From positions 1,116 through 65,115 of the forward strand of contig JAIRMA010000041.1 in the NCBI GenBank assembly GCA_031259085.1: DNA of 64,000 nucleotides, given 5' to 3'. Positions 7,524 through 53,979 of the stretch are shown one piece after another. A program made the translations under genes and the position numbers. The notes under the pieces were generated by a model. That model worked only from the letters and a program-made list of their open reading frames with translations. It was not told the origin of the DNA and did no database searches. This DNA is from Christensenellaceae bacterium (GTDB taxonomy: Bacteria > Bacillota > Clostridia > Christensenellales > DTU072). Positions within the stretch are counted from its first letter, which is position 1. Every line of letters starts with the position of its first letter.

Positions 7524-8630
7524 ATGTTAATTGCAGCCACTTTTTTACAATCTGCTGGATATATCGCTATAGCTATTGGCGCATTGCTCGCAATGATTGT
7601 TATACATGAATTTGGGCATTATTTAGCTGGTCGTCTTTTAGGATTTAAAATTTTGGAATTTTCCATCGGCTTTGGCCCAGCCATATTTAAAAGGAAAGGT
7701 AAGAAAAATGGTGTGGTGTTTTCTATAAGACCATTTCCGTTAGGTGGGTCCTGTCAATTTCTATCAGAAGATGCAAGTAGTGATGACCCAAGTGCATTTA
7801 ACAATAAAGAGCCATGGAAAAGGCTTATAGTTTTATTTGCTGGTGCATTTTTTAACTTTATTGCTGCTTTGATTATAATTACACTCATATTCACATTTTA
7901 TGGACAATTACTTCCAACTATTTCAAATGTATACGACGATTCATCAAATAAAGAAATTCTATTAGAAGGCGATGCAATTTTGACTATCAATGGCAAACAA
8001 ATGAATATCGTAATGGCAGATGATTTTCAAGAGGCATTTTCTAATGTAAATAATACTGTTGAATTAGGTGTCTTAAGAAATGGTAAGATAATAAAATTAA
8101 CGTTGACAAAAAGTGAGTGTGTGCTAGGTTCCTATGATGAAAATGGTGTTTTTACACCTGAACTTGACGAATCTGGAAATGAGCAAACAGCATTCATGTT
8201 TGGCTTTACTAGTGCAATAACAGCACAGAGGCTAAACTTTTTCCATGCCCTTGGGCGGTCATTTTCTTTTTCATTCTTTCTAGTTGGAAAAATTTTAGAA
8301 GCTTTTGCTATGCTGTTTACAGGTAAAATTGGTCTTGAAAATGCTGGAGGTCCAATTACTACAATTTCGCTTATGAGCACAGCAGCCTCATCAGGATTCG
8401 CTGTTTTTTCTTATGTTATTTGTTTAATATCTGCAAATCTTGCTGTAATGAATTTAATGCCATTACCAGCACTTGATGGTTCGCGAATGGTTTTTTGTCT
8501 AATTGAATGGATATTCAAAAAACCCGTCAAAAAGAGCATTGAAGCAGCAATACATGTCACTGGATTCTTTTTGTTAATTGGATTTGCTGTCTTTGCTGAT
8601 GTGTTTAGAATATTTACAGTGGGACTTTAA
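7524..8630 (+). CDS. rseP: RIP (site-2) zinc metalloprotease, M50 family, with PDZ-like insert
   Basis: HEFGHY zinc motif in the first TM helix, a C-terminal NLMPLPALDGSRM motif, and a multi-TM architecture. Confidence 0.88.
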   Translation: MLIAATFLQSAGYIAIAIGALLAMIVIHEFGHYLAGRLLGFKILEFSIGFGPAIFKRKGKKNGVVFSIRPFPLGGSCQFLSEDASSDDPSAFNNKEPWKRLIVLFAGAFFNFIAALIIITLIFTFYGQLLPTISNVYDDSSNKEILLEGDAILTINGKQMNIVMADDFQEAFSNVNNTVELGVLRNGKIIKLTLTKSECVLGSYDENGVFTPELDESGNEQTAFMFGFTSAITAQRLNFFHALGRSFSFSFFLVGKILEAFAMLFTGKIGLENAGGPITTISLMSTAASSGFAVFSYVICLISANLAVMNLMPLPALDGSRMVFCLIEWIFKKPVKKSIEAAIHVTGFFLLIGFAVFADVFRIFTVGL

Positions 8631-8655
8631 CACTAAGCTAATTAAAGGATTTATA

Positions 8656-9684
8656 ATGCTAAAGAAGCGTATAAGTGTAAAAAATTTAATAATTGGTGGT
8701 GGGGCACCTATAAGTGTTCAGTCAATGACAAACACTTTAACAGAAGATATAAACTCTACTATTAAACAAGTTATTAGACTCGAAGAAGCCGGCGCAGATA
8801 TCATTAGGGTGTCAATTCCTAATTCTAAAGCTGCTGTAGCATTAAAACAGATTGTAAAAGAATCAACCGTACCAATTGTCGCAGATATACACTACGATTA
8901 TAAATTAGCGCTTGCATCAATCGAGGCAGGGGCGCACAAAATACGAATCAATCCTTCCAATATTACACATAAACAGGGACTTAAAACCTTAGCACGTGTC
9001 GCTGGAGAAAAAAATATCCCGATTAGAATAGGTTTCAATCAAGGTGCGTTCAAGACTCGAATTAGTATAGATGAATTAGTTTCAAGAACACTTGAAGCAA
9101 TCAAAGACATGGAAGATTATGGTTGCACCAATTTGGTGTTAGCAGTGAAATGTTCTGACGTTAACATAACCATTGCATCATATAGAAAATTGTATGGGTT
9201 AACAAATTATCCACTCCACATTGGGTTGACCGAAGCAGGTGCTGGTGAAACTGCTATTATTAAATCGTCTATCGCAATTGGCACACTTTTAAGTGATGGA
9301 ATTGGTGACACGATACGTGTATCTTTAGCAGGAGATCCAGTACGTGAAGTTTTGGTTGGAAAAAAAATTCTTCAGTGTGCTGGTATCGTTAAAGATTTTG
9401 TGGAAATTATTGCATGTCCGACGTGTGCTAGAACAGTTTTACCTGTGGAAAAAATCGCTATGGAATTGGAGAACATGACTAGAAACACAAAAAAACCACT
9501 TAAGATCGCTGTGATGGGTTGTGCTGTTAATGGAATAGGTGAAGCTGGAAATGCTGATTTTGGAGTATGTGGGGGAAAAACACAGTCACTTCTATTTAAG
9601 AATGGTGAGCGCATAAAAAATGTTATTAATAGTGAGATCACCAATGAATTGTTAAAAATTTTAGAGGAATACACGAATGAATGA
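8656..9684 (+). CDS. ispG: 4-hydroxy-3-methylbut-2-en-1-yl diphosphate synthase (flavodoxin)
   Basis: Contains GGGAPISVQSMTNT and RINPSN, and a C-terminal Fe-S Cys motif (ACPTCART ... MGCAVNGIGEA). I chose the ATG at 8656 after AAAGGA; the tracked 8578 start would add a non-conserved extension overlapping rseP. Confidence 0.9.
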   Translation: MLKKRISVKNLIIGGGAPISVQSMTNTLTEDINSTIKQVIRLEEAGADIIRVSIPNSKAAVALKQIVKESTVPIVADIHYDYKLALASIEAGAHKIRINPSNITHKQGLKTLARVAGEKNIPIRIGFNQGAFKTRISIDELVSRTLEAIKDMEDYGCTNLVLAVKCSDVNITIASYRKLYGLTNYPLHIGLTEAGAGETAIIKSSIAIGTLLSDGIGDTIRVSLAGDPVREVLVGKKILQCAGIVKDFVEIIACPTCARTVLPVEKIAMELENMTRNTKKPLKIAVMGCAVNGIGEAGNADFGVCGGKTQSLLFKNGERIKNVINSEITNELLKILEEYTNE

Positions 9685-11236
9685 TCACGATTACTTCATG
9701 TATCATCTTAATGCACAACTATTACCAGAAGAACGAATCTTAAAATTATCAAGTAAGACTCAAGACAAAAAAGGCGTTTGGTCCATATCATTCATTCTCA
9801 ATGCTGATGACTATGATGCTTATCTTAACGCAAATTTAAAGAATAAAGTAGAAACCATTGTACAGCAACTTATGCCGTATCAGCACGATGCTGTAATATC
9901 TTACGAGAAAACTATCACATCCGAGGATTATATATCACATCTGATTCATGACTACTTATATAGATGTAAACCTGTTTTATATACACAGGTTAGTAACGCT
10001 GACATCAAAGTAAAAATGAACATAAATAACGTGAAAATTGAAATGACCCTGGCTCCATTTTTATGTGATCATATGCATAATAGTGGAACGAGTGAAAAAT
10101 TAACTGAACTTTTAAATTCTAAGATTATTGAGGATGTAGAATTGGAATTTGTCCCTGACGAGAAAGGCGATCCTGATTATAGCACATATGCTAATACTTT
10201 ACCAATAATAAAAACTTCACACTATTCTATTAAAACCTCTCCATATAGAATTAGCAAACATATAATAAGCTCAGTCCTGCACGATCCACGAATAATTGGA
10301 GAAGTAAACAATAAAGAAGCTGACATGTGTTCAGTCGCAGGTGTGGTTTCTTATTTTAAACAATTCATGAGAAAAACTGTACCTCTCCCATTTTATGTTT
10401 TTAAATTAAACGATGGTTCAGCAGAAATTCAAGTGAAATATTTTCCCAAAAGCGAAAAACAGGCCGATTTGTTCACTAAACATGTCGGAGATGGATGTCT
10501 CTTGTGTGTTGAAGGACCGATTAGATGGGATACTTATTCTAATCTCTTTGCATTAACATTATACCGCGCCGCAGAATGCATCTTAGTTCAAGAGGAATCT
10601 GTGCAGGAAGAGAAAATCCCAGAAAAAAAAGAATTGCCCTTATCTTATGTCAATATCCATCCAAAACCTTATGAGGGTGATTTGCAACTCGATATGTTTA
10701 AGATTGCGGATTCTAAATCTAAAAGAGCTGATGAATTCGCAAAGCAAGATTTTGTAGTATTTGATCTTGAAACTACTGGGATTAAAGCATCAGAATGCTG
10801 TATAATAGAGGTTGGTGCTGCTAAGATCAAGTCCGCTAAAATTGTTGAAACATTTTGGTCTTTCATAAAACCTACCCATTCTATCCCGCCTGACGTGACT
10901 AAAATTAATTCTATAACTAATAAAGATGTTGAATTTGCTCCTTGGTGGGGAGACGTCGTAGCTGACTTTTACAAATTCACATTTGGTACAACATTAGTAG
11001 CTCACAATGCAAATTTTGATATGGCCTTTTTGCGAAACCAGAGTGAACCACTGGGCTTTCATTTTGAAAATCCAGTCATAGACTCTCTAGCTTTAGCTCA
11101 ATCTAAACTTGCTTTGTCAAACTATAAACTAAATACTGTGTTAGAACATTTCGGATTACATAATACTAAAGCTCATCGTGCACTCCATGACGCAATATCC
11201 ACTGCTAAAATGTTTATTTTATTATCACAAATGTGA
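9677..11236 (+). CDS. PolC-N-terminus-like protein: N-terminal region + OB-fold-like region + DEDDh 3'-5' exonuclease domain. No PHP or polymerase domains.
   Basis: The C-terminal ~170 aa carry ExoI FDLETTG, ExoII HNANFDMAFL and ExoIII HRALHDA. The middle segment (VAGVVSYFKQ...FKLNDGSAEIQVKYFPK...VEGPIRWDT) resembles the PolC OB fold. The gene sits directly after ispG with an 8-nt overlap. Confidence 0.7.
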   Translation: MNDHDYFMYHLNAQLLPEERILKLSSKTQDKKGVWSISFILNADDYDAYLNANLKNKVETIVQQLMPYQHDAVISYEKTITSEDYISHLIHDYLYRCKPVLYTQVSNADIKVKMNINNVKIEMTLAPFLCDHMHNSGTSEKLTELLNSKIIEDVELEFVPDEKGDPDYSTYANTLPIIKTSHYSIKTSPYRISKHIISSVLHDPRIIGEVNNKEADMCSVAGVVSYFKQFMRKTVPLPFYVFKLNDGSAEIQVKYFPKSEKQADLFTKHVGDGCLLCVEGPIRWDTYSNLFALTLYRAAECILVQEESVQEEKIPEKKELPLSYVNIHPKPYEGDLQLDMFKIADSKSKRADEFAKQDFVVFDLETTGIKASECCIIEVGAAKIKSAKIVETFWSFIKPTHSIPPDVTKINSITNKDVEFAPWWGDVVADFYKFTFGTTLVAHNANFDMAFLRNQSEPLGFHFENPVIDSLALAQSKLALSNYKLNTVLEHFGLHNTKAHRALHDAISTAKMFILLSQM

Positions 11237-11439
11237 TCGCATCTTTTTTAAAACTAACAAAACAAAGCTAATGTCCATTGCATTTTTTTGTAAAGCTTTA
11301 GGTGAACAGTCAAGCATCTTAGACAAGCAAATTAAAGAATTTTTTAATTTCTGCTGGTTTTTCAAAAATTTGTTTAAAAGTCTTTGACTCATAATCATGA
11401 ATACTAAATCTAAAATATTATTAAATACGTGACTTAATT

Positions 11440-11468
11440 TTGACAAAATAGATTTTAAAAGCTATAAT
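11440..11468 (+). promoter_or_regulatory. sigma-70-type promoter, TTGACA-17 nt-TATAAT
   Basis: Exact consensus hexamers at 11440-11445 and 11463-11468 with a 17-nt spacer. It lies upstream of the repeated element and the second exonuclease gene. Confidence 0.55.
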
Positions 11469-11500
11469 AGTTAGGTAATAATAAAGATAGATTTGAATTA

Positions 11501-11663
11501 TGCATTGATAAAAATGTTTATAAATTCAAATAAAAATTGTGTACTATTTGTGCTAATTTTCATATCACACAAGAAAGCTTAAATATTTTGGCTAAAACTA
11601 CTATTATTTATTATTAGTATTTGATTATTGTCATCTTTTTTTGTCCTTTCTCAAAAACTCTGT
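11501..11663 (+). repeat. copy 1 of a dispersed intergenic element (partner at 53815-53979, inverted)
   Basis: By-eye alignment to the reverse complement of 53815-53979 shows colinear similarity from TGCATTGAT to AAAAACTCTGT with few indels. Weaker similarity continues to about 11700. Confidence 0.8.
11514..11582 (+). CDS. candidate 22-aa hydrophobic small ORF (MFINSNKNCVLFVLIFISHKKA) inside repeat copy 1
   Basis: ATG..TAA, 22 codons. The same-length ORF is kept in the second repeat copy. No obvious Shine-Dalgarno sequence, so translation is unproven. Confidence 0.3.
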   Translation: MFINSNKNCVLFVLIFISHKKA

Positions 11664-11699
11664 TAAATAAATTCATAACTCAACTAAGGAGATGCTACA

Positions 11700-12299
11700 A
11701 TGATGTCAACTCAATATTCACTGATATCCCCCATGCCATATCAAGATCAATCTGATCTTGATATAATTAAGTCTGGTCAATCTAAAAGGCCAAATAAATT
11801 TTTTCAAGAAGAATATGTGATCTTTGATTTTGAAACAACAGGCTTCAAGGCATCCGACTGTTGTATTATAGAAGTAGGCGCTGCCAAAATCAAATCTGGA
11901 AAAATTGTTGAAACTTTTTGGTCCTTTGTTCATCCAACTCACCCTATCCCACCTGAAATCACACGAATTACCTCTATTACAAACAATGATGTGGCGCATG
12001 CACCTTTATGGGAGGAGATAGTCCCAGACTTTCATAAATTTACTCTTAATACTACATTAGTAGCCCATAATGCTAGTTTTGATATGGCATTTTTAGAAAA
12101 GCAAAGCGAACCCGCGGGTTATTATTTTCGCAACCCTGTGCTAGACACTATTGCATTAGCTAAATCTAAAATTCATTTGACAAGCTACAAGTTAAATGTT
12201 TTGTTAGAACACCTCAATTTACATAACACAAATCCACATCGTGCACTTCACGATGCAATATCCACTGCTAAAATGTTCATTGTCCTATCTACGATGTAA
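11700..12299 (+). CDS. stand-alone DEDDh 3'-5' exonuclease (DnaQ/PolC-exo-like), tandem paralog of the C-terminus of 9677-11236
   Basis: FDFETTG, HNASFDMAFL and HRALHDA motifs, with RBS AAGGAG upstream. It aligns residue-for-residue with the last ~190 aa of the upstream protein and ends at the same position (...AKMFIVLSTM versus ...AKMFILLSQM). Confidence 0.85.
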   Translation: MMSTQYSLISPMPYQDQSDLDIIKSGQSKRPNKFFQEEYVIFDFETTGFKASDCCIIEVGAAKIKSGKIVETFWSFVHPTHPIPPEITRITSITNNDVAHAPLWEEIVPDFHKFTLNTTLVAHNASFDMAFLEKQSEPAGYYFRNPVLDTIALAKSKIHLTSYKLNVLLEHLNLHNTNPHRALHDAISTAKMFIVLSTM

Positions 12300-12384
12300 C
12301 CCATGCACCTCATTAAAACTCATAAACTTGTATTTAGCATAAACTGTTTTTTCTGTGCATATATTAAATTAATGAGGTTTGTTT

Positions 12385-13296
12385 ATGTCATTAATAAGGA
12401 AGAAACTGACACTTAAGAATGGCACAGTAACCATTGCTAGTTTGACAATTATCAAGATTGGTAATACGTGTGGTATAAAACTAATATTAGAAGATGAGCT
12501 TGAAAATTGTCCGTATGCTTTTATTAAAACAGCAGTAGATCCAATAGTGTTTTTCAAAATTGTGAATAAAAAAACAGAAATATCAAAAAGTCTAATGTTC
12601 TCTTTAAATGATGCAATAGACGCTGTAATTATAAATAATCAATACAGAATCTTAGGGCGTGGCGGTTATAAAAATCTAATTGATGTAAATGAATTAAAAT
12701 CATTAATCAACTGCGATGATAATTCGATTCAAAACTGCATTATCAGTGATACTTTATCATCAATCGACAATTCTAATACTGATAGCGTTGAGCCTCTACA
12801 TCATGATAATTCTGTTAACGGCAAGACAAAACCTACACAAACAGACTTGCATAGTAAAGCATCTAATAACAAATCACCCATTCAACCGAAAACTGTAAAA
12901 GATATACCTATACAATCAAATAACAATCCATTTGTATTAGCCTTAAATAATAATTTTAGTAGGCTTATTAAAACAAAACTCAATGAGTTATTTACAACGA
13001 ATCCACAAGACAGTACACTAGAAAAACACATTCCAAATAGTAAATGGGTAAAAATCAAGTATGATAGTGATGAATATTATTCGATAGGAATACTTAGCAA
13101 AAATGGAGCTTCAACACATCTTATTTATGCCGTGCCTGGAGTGCAGAACATAAAGCCACCGCAAGAGGCCCAAGAAATATGCAAGTTCTTAAAAATCGAT
13201 GGTGACGATGTTAAGGGCTATTGGTTAATGGCTCAAAGCCTCAAGGATGGGCTCATTGAAAAAAATTGCGCCTGTTTAAATTTAGATTTGTTTTAG
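12385..13296 (+). CDS. hypothetical protein with a low-complexity S/N/Q-rich linker
   Basis: Long ORF with native AT-rich composition, starting at an ATG after GAGG. The C-terminal block (WVKIKYDSDEYYSIGIL...IYAVPGV...KGYWLMAQS) looks like a conserved domain, but I cannot name the family. Confidence 0.6.
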   Translation: MSLIRKKLTLKNGTVTIASLTIIKIGNTCGIKLILEDELENCPYAFIKTAVDPIVFFKIVNKKTEISKSLMFSLNDAIDAVIINNQYRILGRGGYKNLIDVNELKSLINCDDNSIQNCIISDTLSSIDNSNTDSVEPLHHDNSVNGKTKPTQTDLHSKASNNKSPIQPKTVKDIPIQSNNNPFVLALNNNFSRLIKTKLNELFTTNPQDSTLEKHIPNSKWVKIKYDSDEYYSIGILSKNGASTHLIYAVPGVQNIKPPQEAQEICKFLKIDGDDVKGYWLMAQSLKDGLIEKNCACLNLDLF

Positions 13297-13460: not shown

Positions 13461-13891
13461 AACACCGACGCTAATTTTGGTGCCAAATCTAGTAAAAAAT
13501 TTGGTTTCGTTATAAGAAAACGGTTTTATTTGATATGGGATCAGGATTAATCGTTGATGTTTTTATAACATCTGTCAGCTACAAGATAAAAGCGGCAGAG
13601 CCAATATTACCTAAATCTGGAGCAATTGTTGCTGATAAGGGATATTTAGGGCTAAAACAAATGGCAAAGGAAAATGGCCTACATGCAATGGCAATTCAAC
13701 TAAGCAACATGAAGACACAAAATAAAGACTATGATAGATTCCTGACAAAACTCAGAGCACCGTATGAGAGTGTTTTTAGCAAAAGAGACAACTTAGAGCA
13801 AGATACAAAGGCAAAGAAAATAATCAAGGTGTCGAATATTTGGTCTCAAGTATCATATGATATGTCGAGGGCACTAAAACTAAATATTTAA
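13461..13891 (+). mobile_element. degraded IS5/IS1182-type DDE transposase remnant
   Basis: Fragments in shifting frames: DANFGAKSSKKFGF, then VADKGYLGLKQMAKENGLHAMAI...NKDYDRFLTKLRAPYESVFSK. This is the ADKGY and RxxxE..F pattern of IS5-family transposases. No intact ORF and no terminal repeats were recognised. Confidence 0.6.
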
Positions 13892-14163: not shown

Positions 14164-15189
14164 CTAGTCCTTTAAACACCCTATCGACACTACGAATACG
14201 CCATCGGAGCGACGGTAGGCGATGTCGGTAGCGGTCAACACCATTAAGAACACTGGATCTCTTTTTACTAACGATCGAAGCATTCTTAAGTTGTTTGCGC
14301 CGCCGTCAATTTCCCTGCTTCCCATTTTAACCTCGATCGCGCCCCAACGACTGTCTTTTAGTTGCACGACCGCATCGCACTCCAAGCCGTTCTTGTCGCG
14401 ATAGTGAAACACTTCGCCGTCTATCGCCTGTGTGCATACTCGCAGGTCGCGGACACATAACGATTCAAATAAAAGTCCGAATGTATTGAAATCTTGTAAT
14501 AACCTTTTCTGATTTACGCGAAGTGCGGCAGCCGCAATCGACGGATCTATGTAATGTCTTGTCGCCGTGGTTCTGATAGCGGTCTTTGACCTCAAGGCAG
14601 GATTCCATGCGGGCAAGTCCTCAATGACATGAATCCGTCTAAGGGAGTTAAGATAACTCGCGACGGTCGGCGCGGAAAGCGAAGCACCCTCGCTAACCAT
14701 GTCATTTCGAAGCGTTTCATTATTCGCCATAGACGCACTGCACCGCGCAAGGCTACGCATAAGCACGCGCATGGAATTAGGATTCTTTTCAACGCCGTCC
14801 ACGCGGTTTACGTCATGGTTGATAACCGCCTCGACATAATCGTAAACTCTGCGCAGTACGATATTCTCTTTTTCACCAATAGATTGCGGCCAACCGCCTC
14901 TTACAAGCGCATAAGCCAGTTCCTCTATCGTTAGCGATGAAAAGCCTTGTACATCATGTGCGCCGTCGAATAATGCTCCGAGACTAATTTGTCCGTTAGA
15001 TTCCCCCGATTCATAAAGACTCATAGTCCGCATTTTGAAACGTGATATTCTTCCAGTTCCCGTATGCAAATTTACGTCATCGAGCGGCACGGCGGAACCC
15101 GTAAGGATAAACTGCGCCGTATCCGAGCATTGGTCTACGGCAAAACGCACCGCGTCCCAAAGAATTGGCGTTGATTTGCACACATACAC
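14164..15189 (-). pseudogene. N-terminally truncated AAA ATPase with DUF4143 C-terminal domain (P-loop region missing)
   Basis: The ORF begins in the middle of the ATPase domain (...PILWDAVRFAVDQ....AQFILTGSAVP...GTGRISRFKMRTMSLYESG), so the Walker A segment is absent. An in-frame stop lies 6 codons upstream, and the methyltransferase remnant ends 28 nt away. GC-richer than the flanks. Confidence 0.6.
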
Positions 15190-53814: not shown

Positions 53815-53979
53815 ACAGAGTTTTTGCGGAATTAGAAAAAAAGGATGACAATAATCAAATACAAATAAAAGATAAAAGTGGCTTTAGCCAAAATTTTTAA
53901 GCTCCCTCGTGTGATATAAAAATTAGCACAACCAGTACACAACTTTTATTGGAATATATAACCATTTTTAATCAATGCA
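53815..53979 (-). repeat. copy 2 of the dispersed intergenic element (partner 11501-11663)
   Basis: The reverse complement aligns colinearly with 11501-11663. Weaker similarity extends to about 53765, corresponding to the RBS region of the exonuclease gene at copy 1. Confidence 0.8.
53897..53965 (-). CDS. candidate 22-aa small ORF MVIYSNKSCVLVVLIFISHEGA in repeat copy 2
   Basis: Same length, start and stop positions as the sORF in copy 1. There are 10 nucleotide differences in 69 nt: 3 in synonymous codon changes and 7 in six amino-acid changes. Confidence 0.25.
   Translation of the reverse strand: MVIYSNKSCVLVVLIFISHEGA

Follow-up and report, generated by a model that had tools for sequence, protein, structure and literature searches.

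A polC-derived gene downstream of ispG

PolC is treated as the hallmark and essential replicase of low-GC Gram-positive bacteria. We analyzed a window of 64,000 nucleotides (nt) from a Christensenellaceae bacterium (contig JAIRMA010000041.1, positions 1,116 to 65,115; "the window" denotes this whole stretch), in which a gene for a protein of 519 amino acids (aa) directly follows ispG at the place expected for polC. The upstream genes on the plus strand are arranged in the order frr-uppS-cdsA-dxr-rseP-ispG. The 519-aa protein consists of the front domains and the proofreading nuclease of PolC, while the polymerase is gone; we refer to it as the PolC relic. The gene and the domains of its product are located as follows:

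8578..9684, plus strand: ispG (NCBIfam NF001540, 395 bits, above cut-off), the conserved upstream neighbor, whose stop overlaps the relic start by 8 nt
9677..11236, plus strand: PolC relic gene, 519 aa, with N-terminal domain, OB fold, linker with clamp-binding-type motif and DEDDh exonuclease
9677..10171, plus strand: N-terminal domain, aa 1–165, a homolog of its PolC counterpart, built from two alpha-beta-beta-alpha-alpha-beta modules in tandem (type II KH-like)
10241..10585, plus strand: OB-fold domain, aa ~189–303, homologous to the PolC OB domain
10685..10699, plus strand: QLDMF, aa 337–341, pentapeptide putatively of the beta-clamp-binding type, within the flexible linker and ~20 residues ahead of the exonuclease
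10748..11233, plus strand: DEDDh 3'-5' exonuclease domain, aa 358–519 (PF00929), with residues D363, E365, D448, H500 and D505

Pfam recognized an RNase_T domain (PF00929) at aa 360–513 (E 3e-30, score 106 against a cut-off of 24) and, as a weak match, an OB fold at aa 221–283. The DEDDh motifs read FDLETTG, HNANFDMAFL and HRALHDA, and the open reading frame (ORF) stops 14 residues past D505 of the last of them, the ExoIII motif. No PHP or polymerase domain was matched by Pfam, including the palm/thumb/fingers core PF07733. A preliminary description of the locus had noted the position directly after ispG with the 8-nt overlap, the succession of an N-terminal region, an OB-like segment and a DEDDh exonuclease, and the end of the ORF after ExoIII without PHP or polymerase core, all of which we could confirm.

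The best NCBIfam model for the protein was that of PolC (NF001688), over model positions 415–584 only and at 160.9 bits, below the cut-off of 873. The PolC model TIGR01405 likewise stayed below its cut-off (132 bits, cut-off 1043), as did the two models of the proteobacterial-type epsilon subunit, TIGR01406 (79.6, cut-off 222.7) and PRK05711 (84, cut-off 196). The DnaQ/epsilon family model TIGR00573 scored above cut-off (98.1 bits, cut-off 71.5).

We collected homologs of the protein, aligned 40 of them and compared the profile with ten full-length PolCs of the same order using hhalign. Residues 15–518 were colinear with PolC residues 31–596 (100%, E 1e-72). Both front domains also aligned when taken alone, the N-terminal domain (aa 1–175) with PolC 36–175 (93%, E 2.8e-7) and the OB segment with PolC 231–337 (98.8%, E 5.6e-17). 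As a control the two were compared with the C-terminal 850 residues of PolC, where neither matched. The OB fold PF01336 was found in 38 of the 40 family members, and the family profile matched the OB domain of G. kaustophilus PolC (PDB 3f2b, E 9e-8). In the sequence-profile comparison the exonuclease was closest to that of PolC, with 210 bits for 2p1j as opposed to 95 bits for E. coli epsilon.

An AlphaFold2 model of the 519-aa protein had a mean predicted local distance difference test score (pLDDT) of 87.7, with confident domains at aa 1–165, 190–303 and 350–519 joined by low-confidence linkers. Its top Foldseek match in the PDB was the full-length PolC of E. faecium (9qpc_A, E 3.7e-18, 376 columns). 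The preliminary description had suggested a derivation from PolC and had named the comparison of aa 1–350 with the PolC N-terminal and OB domains as a check, and on both counts the data agree with it. Modelled alone, the N-terminal domain reached a pLDDT of 94.7 and a predicted template modelling score of 0.85 and showed two tandem alpha-beta-beta-alpha-alpha-beta modules. The N-terminal domain of PolC has been predicted to be a pair of type II KH-like modules related to domain V of tau (PMC3919608, its ref. 18), and the topology of our model agrees with this prediction. No solved PolC structure shows this domain, which was deleted in 3f2b and is flexible and unresolved in 9qpc/9qrn (PMC12592400). 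With the model of this domain alone, Foldseek gave weak tandem-module matches only (dual-BON proteins, and NusA KH at E 2e-3); the 50 best matches did not include tau domain V, and no Pfam model matched the domain. A profile restricted to the N-terminal domain and the OB fold was also run against six-frame translations of 300 Clostridia genomes. Outside the family it retrieved only the N-termini of full-length PolCs, several of the matches covering both domains, and the same was found in 40 PolC-containing genomes of the same order.

Distribution of the family and loss of polC

In the genome of the window (2.35 Mb, 92% complete, 112 contigs) a profile search at curated cut-offs gave no PolC above cut-off, and the PF07733 core identified exactly one C-family polymerase, DnaE1. 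This sole DnaE of 1285 aa is encoded on the same contig, outside the window (C35:86231–90088). Aligned with the DnaE1 structures of T. aquaticus and M. tuberculosis, this DnaE keeps all nine metal ligands of the PHP domain. Apart from the relic and a 199-aa ORF downstream of it, no RNase_T-type exonuclease of the genome scored above cut-off.

We then considered 161 genomes of at least 90% completeness from 39 families of the order, Christensenellales. PolC was present in 80 and absent in 81 of them, and the split was consistent within every family; in 17 families none of the sampled genomes had a PolC. Among the 81 PolC-lacking genomes, 73 contained a frame of ~500–560 aa with a PolC-like exonuclease, and in the remaining eight the long protein was found with the family profile, giving 81/81. 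In contrast, a check of 40 PolC-containing genomes of the order yielded the family protein in no case (0/40), and it was absent from the other orders among the 300 sampled Clostridia genomes. The family protein and PolC are thus mutually exclusive within the order, and the family is confined to it. The preliminary description had held that a full polC must lie elsewhere in the genome. The data contradict this: the genome-wide search for polC and dnaE, which it had named as a check, returned one DnaE and no polC, in line with the 17 families devoid of PolC. A further check, recurrence of the 519-aa architecture in related genomes, was answered by the presence of the long protein in all PolC-lacking genomes.

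Some of the PolC-lacking assemblies consist of just 3–10 contigs, and one family member is located on a metagenome scaffold of 2.39 Mb with the same upstream synteny. Family loci are assigned to uncultured Christensenellaceae, Christensenella, Clostridia, Candidatus Coproplasma/Gallimonas/Scatosoma/Onthoplasma and 'Subdoligranulum sp. CAG:314'. Among 1.84 billion representative sequences the family comprises at least 331 clusters at 50% identity (E ≤ 1e-30). The preliminary description had left two options, a PolC-derived accessory family or the remnant of a rearranged polC; a family of this size and conservation speaks for the first and against a remnant produced by decay or breakage.

The position of the gene was compared with that of polC. 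In 8 of 10 PolC-containing relatives ispG lies immediately upstream of polC, and of 80 family loci, 66 have an ispG match ahead of the relic; the gene order in the family loci is (rseP-)ispG-[~1.5-kb gene]-rimP-nusA. The distance between ispG and rimP is below 2.3 kb in 55 of the 57 loci having both neighbors (median 1.7 kb), leaving no room for a polC of 4.3 kb. The same 55/57 family loci show the full polC slot (ispG or proS, polC, rimP-nusA), of which the window contains the upstream half. Since the relic occupies the ispG-rimP slot of polC, it is polC cut down in place, and the assignment of the gene to the syntenic polC position in the preliminary description holds. In nearly all relatives the relic gene is followed by rimP-nusA-ylxR. 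Here these genes are located on another contig (C76:24113–25418, minus strand), indicating that a rearrangement split them from the ispG-relic cluster.

One tree was built from the exonuclease only and a second from all three domains together with outgroup PolCs. In both, the family members grouped as a single clade, with support of 98 and 100 in the Shimodaira–Hasegawa-like approximate likelihood ratio test. The clade lies within a polytomy of clostridial PolCs, among them each of the nine PolCs sampled from the same order. This is the outcome of the exonuclease phylogeny that the preliminary description had listed among its checks. The stem of the family is long (1.07 substitutions per site), and a single clade on a long stem suggests one origin followed by accelerated change. 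In summary, in an ancestor of about half the families of the order polC shrank in place to ~1.5 kb, losing the N-terminal PHP segment, the rest of PHP, the polymerase core, HhH and the C-terminal clamp motif. We regard this evolutionary and architectural conclusion as very secure.

Two further observations concern the polymerases of the order. The sole DnaE in the genome of the window owes its length to the presence, in tandem, of two copies of the C-terminal domain that follows its OB fold (26% identity over 76 aa, E 3e-9). Stop-to-stop frames of DnaE average ~1216 aa in PolC-lacking and ~1173 aa in PolC-containing genomes, a difference of ~43 aa; as a signal of co-evolution this is weak, since the ranges overlap (1160–1290 and 1160–1206 aa). 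One PolC in the order-wide sample (G156) has a frame of 1818 aa.

We also determined the conservation of the linker and of the catalytic residues. A pentapeptide Q-x-[DGNS]-[LMIF]-F precedes the exonuclease at a fixed distance in 116 of 119 family members, most commonly as QADLF, also as QSDLF or QADMF, and as QLDMF here. Q337 and F341 are each at least 90% conserved in the 40-member alignment, in an otherwise variable linker in which pLDDT at the pentapeptide is 53–68. Judged by its residues, the pentapeptide falls into the beta-clamp-binding consensus class (QL[SD]LF / QxxLF). The PolCs of relatives carry their clamp motif (QLSLF, QISLF, QLDLF) at or a few residues from the C-terminus, e.g. 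...QISLF* and ...QLSLFDF*. With this C-terminal motif gone and the pentapeptide present in the linker, the relic has lost the PolC clamp motif and carries a putative one at a new site; the Qxx[LM]F pentapeptide of the linker is a gain of the family that almost all members have kept. The five DEDDh residues are invariant in 40/40 aligned members and in 70/70 locus-derived sequences. Among 125 representatives found by a profile built without the exonuclease, 124 have all five intact, which argues that catalysis is under selection. The N-terminal domain is the least conserved part of the family and has no invariant column.

The exonuclease-only paralog and its surroundings

Downstream of the relic a shorter ORF repeats part of it:

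11237..11699, no strand: AT-rich spacer between the paralogs, with sigma-70 consensus (11440–11468), repeat copy (11496–11668) and Shine-Dalgarno sequence (11688–11693)
11700..12299, plus strand: exonuclease-only paralog, 199 aa, DEDDh intact, without N-terminal domain and OB fold, DLDII at the clamp-motif position

The 199-aa ORF begins 463 nt downstream of the 519-aa ORF, and its product shares 64% identity with aa 324–519 of the long protein, staying colinear with it through the final residue. At the DNA level the two copies are ~70% identical in a 1063-nt register, including an identical run of 23 nt at ~11192–11214 and ~12255–12277. One gene caller gives the short ORF a length of 188 aa; the 199-aa start has the better Shine-Dalgarno sequence (AAGGAG, 11688–11693). 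The short protein, too, has the five DEDDh residues and reaches the DnaQ/epsilon family models TIGR00573 and PF00929. In the tree it forms a trichotomy with the long gene and the ortholog of the latter from the same genus (support 98). The preliminary description had reported a repetition of the linker and exonuclease ~460 nt downstream, with the 23-nt run, and had read it as a duplication, which these values corroborate. We found no close copy of the paralog in the two other sampled genomes of the genus and no close short homolog among 5.8 billion proteins, the next best being 42% identical. The 199-aa gene, found in this genome only, is a duplicate of the linker-plus-exonuclease part and arose around the time when the species of the genus separated.

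The ratio of non-synonymous to synonymous substitutions (dN/dS) between the paralog and the long gene is 0.12–0.19 with dS saturated, so the paralog is of sufficient age and is constrained, under purifying selection. At the motif position the paralog reads DLDII instead of QLDMF, with both Q and F lost, and the shifted QSDLDI may perhaps be a weak hexapeptide variant of the clamp motif. As the paralog lacks the tethering parts, it is probably a free DnaQ-like exonuclease, which is the simplest reading.

The spacer contains a perfect sigma-70 consensus (TTGACA-17 nt-TATAAT, 12/12) at 11440–11468, ~230 nt upstream of the paralog, which implies its independent transcription with a long leader. 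Position 11496–11668 of the spacer is occupied by a copy of a dispersed repeat of ~170 nt that has at least 11 copies in the genome (76–88% identical), on other contigs as well. A second copy in the window lies at 53815–53979 on the minus strand, upstream of a membrane-protein operon at ~53400. The repeat is apparently of the miniature inverted-repeat transposable element (MITE) or repetitive extragenic palindromic (REP) type; neither spacer nor repeat gave an Rfam match. Directly after the paralog follows a 305-aa ORF (12379–13296) without Pfam, NCBIfam or PADLOC match, and beyond it a weak remnant of a DDE transposase (13535–13891) and a DUF4143 gene (14164–15189, minus strand). A reading of the paralog and the 305-aa ORF as a defense system was dropped, as PADLOC gave generic DEDDh matches only.

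Short exonucleases beside a long relic were also seen in other PolC-lacking lineages. Exonuclease-only ORFs of 203, 207 and 261 aa with intact DEDDh residues were found in three genomes (G090, G152, G088); in two genomes of family f39 the separate exonuclease of 203–207 aa is divergent. These short ORFs are independent of the 199-aa paralog described here.

Proposed role of the relic in replication

These observations suggest that the lineage replicates with DnaE alone and keeps the leftover front of PolC as a separate accessory or proofreading subunit. From the domain composition and the motif we propose, with a probability of roughly 55–60%, that the relic is a polC-derived, clamp-tethered accessory proofreader of a DnaE1-only replisome. 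As a stand-alone subunit of this replisome it would be tethered to the beta sliding clamp by the linker pentapeptide. The OB fold would hold the single-stranded DNA of the template, the N-terminal domain would make the connection to the clamp loader and/or DnaE1, and the exonuclease would remove 3' mismatches of DnaE1 in trans. For the N-terminal domain this connection is proposed on account of its relationship to tau domain V and of an earlier suggestion that PolC meets the clamp loader through it (PMC3919608). Clostridial DnaE1 has been described as having all properties of a self-sufficient replicase (PMC3919608). Proofreading in trans as proposed here has been reported for B. subtilis, where the exonuclease of PolC is said to correct the products of the separate DnaE (PMC11890065; PMC12926913). 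There, however, the exonuclease resides within an active PolC beside DnaE3, whereas here the polymerase part is gone and the partner would be DnaE1.

The relic shares with the N-terminal third of PolC the same three domains in the same order and the same slot between ispG and rimP-nusA, as well as a Qxx[LM]F clamp-type motif and an exonuclease most like 2p1j and 9qpc. It differs from PolC in lacking both PHP halves, the polymerase core, HhH and the C-terminal end. Its motif lies in the linker between OB fold and exonuclease and not at or near the C-terminus, and its exonuclease is terminal, whereas that of PolC is an insertion in PHP. The DnaQ epsilon subunit of E. coli is likewise a stand-alone DEDDh proofreader serving a DnaE-type polymerase, as we propose for the relic. 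Epsilon carries the clamp-binding motif QTSMAF, and polymerase, clamp and exonuclease form a tripartite complex. In contrast to the relic, epsilon has no N-terminal domain and OB fold, and its clamp motif comes after the exonuclease and not before it. Epsilon also binds the PHP domain of alpha via a C-terminal peptide that is absent from the relic, which ends right after ExoIII. The relic exonuclease is of the PolC type (210 as opposed to 95 bits), and the PHP site is intact in the proposed partner DnaE1 but not in E. coli alpha. DEDDh domains of a very similar PolC-like kind occur in DinG-family exonuclease-helicase fusions (S. aureus DinG, PDB 8zef), PRK06807 and PRK08517. These have other partner domains, however, none has the N-terminal domain and OB fold of PolC, and none of the models reached its NCBIfam cut-off here.

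Several observations weigh against a role as proofreader or limit the proposal. In genus g55 of family f39 (548–552 aa) ExoI reads LHVNSTG, ExoII is without Asp and ExoIII without His, and part of family f25 (500–541 aa) has lost ExoI-III together with the clamp motif. In both sublineages the N-terminal domain and OB fold are still recognizable (E 1e-26 to 1e-68). The exonuclease appears to have been inactivated in at least two independent events, and a protein kept with a dead exonuclease means that part of the selected function needs no catalysis. Such relics were seen in six genomes (G090, G062, G105, G161, G176 and G168). With all nine PHP metal ligands in place, DnaE1 may proofread its own products, which would make the relic a second proofreader. 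In hhalign the linker (aa 300–358) matched nothing, including the PHP segment in the N-terminal part of PolC; the idea that the linker is a leftover of this segment was abandoned on this result, and an apparent likeness of 'V.P.PY' to 'VQAFPDAY' is not supported. Finally, the named family genomes are all metagenome-assembled genomes or metagenome scaffolds, with no named cultured isolate among them.

The persistence of proteins with dead exonuclease is the reason for keeping, as the main rival, a structural or regulatory role in the replisome in which N-terminal domain, OB fold and exonuclease fold serve as a scaffold and exonuclease activity is secondary. The protein might, for example, bridge the clamp loader or DnaE1 to the single-stranded template and so continue a non-catalytic job of the PolC front end. 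The clamp-loader contact proposed for the PolC N-terminal domain (PMC3919608) and the intact PHP site of DnaE1 would fit such a role as well. We nevertheless consider it unlikely, since it is precisely the exonuclease that is preserved (124/125 representatives retrieved without using it, 40/40 and 70/70 in the other alignments), while the N-terminal domain is the part that varies most and has no invariant column. A clamp-recruited repair exonuclease, acting in mismatch-repair excision, in the processing of 3' flaps or blocked 3' ends or in the maturation of Okazaki fragments, seems rather improbable to us. The combination of a clamp-type motif, an OB fold of the single-strand-binding type and a DEDDh nuclease would suit many clamp-dependent repair steps, and with only two RNase_T-type exonucleases in the genome other jobs of the DnaQ family may fall to them. 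On the other hand, the gene descends from the proofreading module of the replicase itself and keeps the domains by which PolC faces the replisome, alternates strictly with PolC (81/81 against 0/40) and has kept its position in the housekeeping cluster ispG-rimP-nusA.

That the gene is merely a broken, collapsed or decaying polC, i.e. an assembly artefact or a pseudogene, or that it is half of a PolC split in two, with the polymerase encoded elsewhere, could be suspected from its superficial likeness to the first third of PolC and from an assembly of 112 contigs at 92% completeness. This is refuted by distribution and synteny, and we attach next to no weight to it. The same architecture and end point recur in independent assemblies of many studies, including the 2.39-Mb scaffold, the gap between ispG and rimP fits only ~1.5 kb, and the family is strongly conserved. 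Moreover, the genome contains no second polymerase core, and none of the 81 genomes of at least 90% completeness has a PolC.

A bolder extension of the accessory proofreader proposal is that the relic is an obligatory non-polymerase subunit of the replisome that reveals the role of the PolC front end. The tau-domain-V-like N-terminal domain would then sit on the C-terminal domain of DnaE1 and the OB fold on the template, and the internal motif would replace the C-terminal one. Of the duplicated C-terminal domain of DnaE, one copy might serve tau and the other the relic. We put this forward as tentative and on balance doubtful.

In the literature, some Clostridia are described as having a single DnaE1 only, and the architecture of clostridial PolC as variable (Timinskas et al. 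2014, PMC3919608). That study dropped fragments without polymerase active site, and a 2026 survey of more than 3000 complete genomes assigned PolC and DnaE1 to Clostridia (PMC12926913). An N-terminal/OB/exonuclease relic is described in neither of the two, and a full-text search for PolC loss, or for Christensenellales together with PolC, gave nothing relevant. The reciprocal variant, a PolC without exonuclease, is known (PMC3919608), whereas the exonuclease without PolC was not found in the literature searched. The division of labor between PolC and DnaE1 in Clostridia is regarded as unsettled (PMC3919608).

In a large clade of gut Clostridia the PolC polymerase has been dropped, but selection has maintained the N-terminal domain, OB fold and exonuclease of PolC. 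DnaE1 can thus be the sole replicase in Clostridia, and the front end and proofreader of PolC are separable and selectable. The current annotation of the family is misleading, its members being labelled '3'-5' exo(ribo)nuclease', 'epsilon subunit family' and once 'polymerase alpha, Gram-positive type'; others are labelled 'hypothetical'. Of ibezapolstat and other drugs directed at PolC it has been stated that they spare organisms without this enzyme (PMC12592400), and their spectrum within Bacillota is described as narrower than expected (PMC13003532); to such inhibitors the PolC-lacking commensals of this order offer no target. The clade represents a natural separation-of-function experiment and a handle on the unexplained N-terminal domain of PolC. 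If the relic were indeed an obligatory subunit, PolC would amount to two separable machines joined in a natural fusion, and in the Clostridia that possess both polymerases the bulk of replication would always have been the work of DnaE1.

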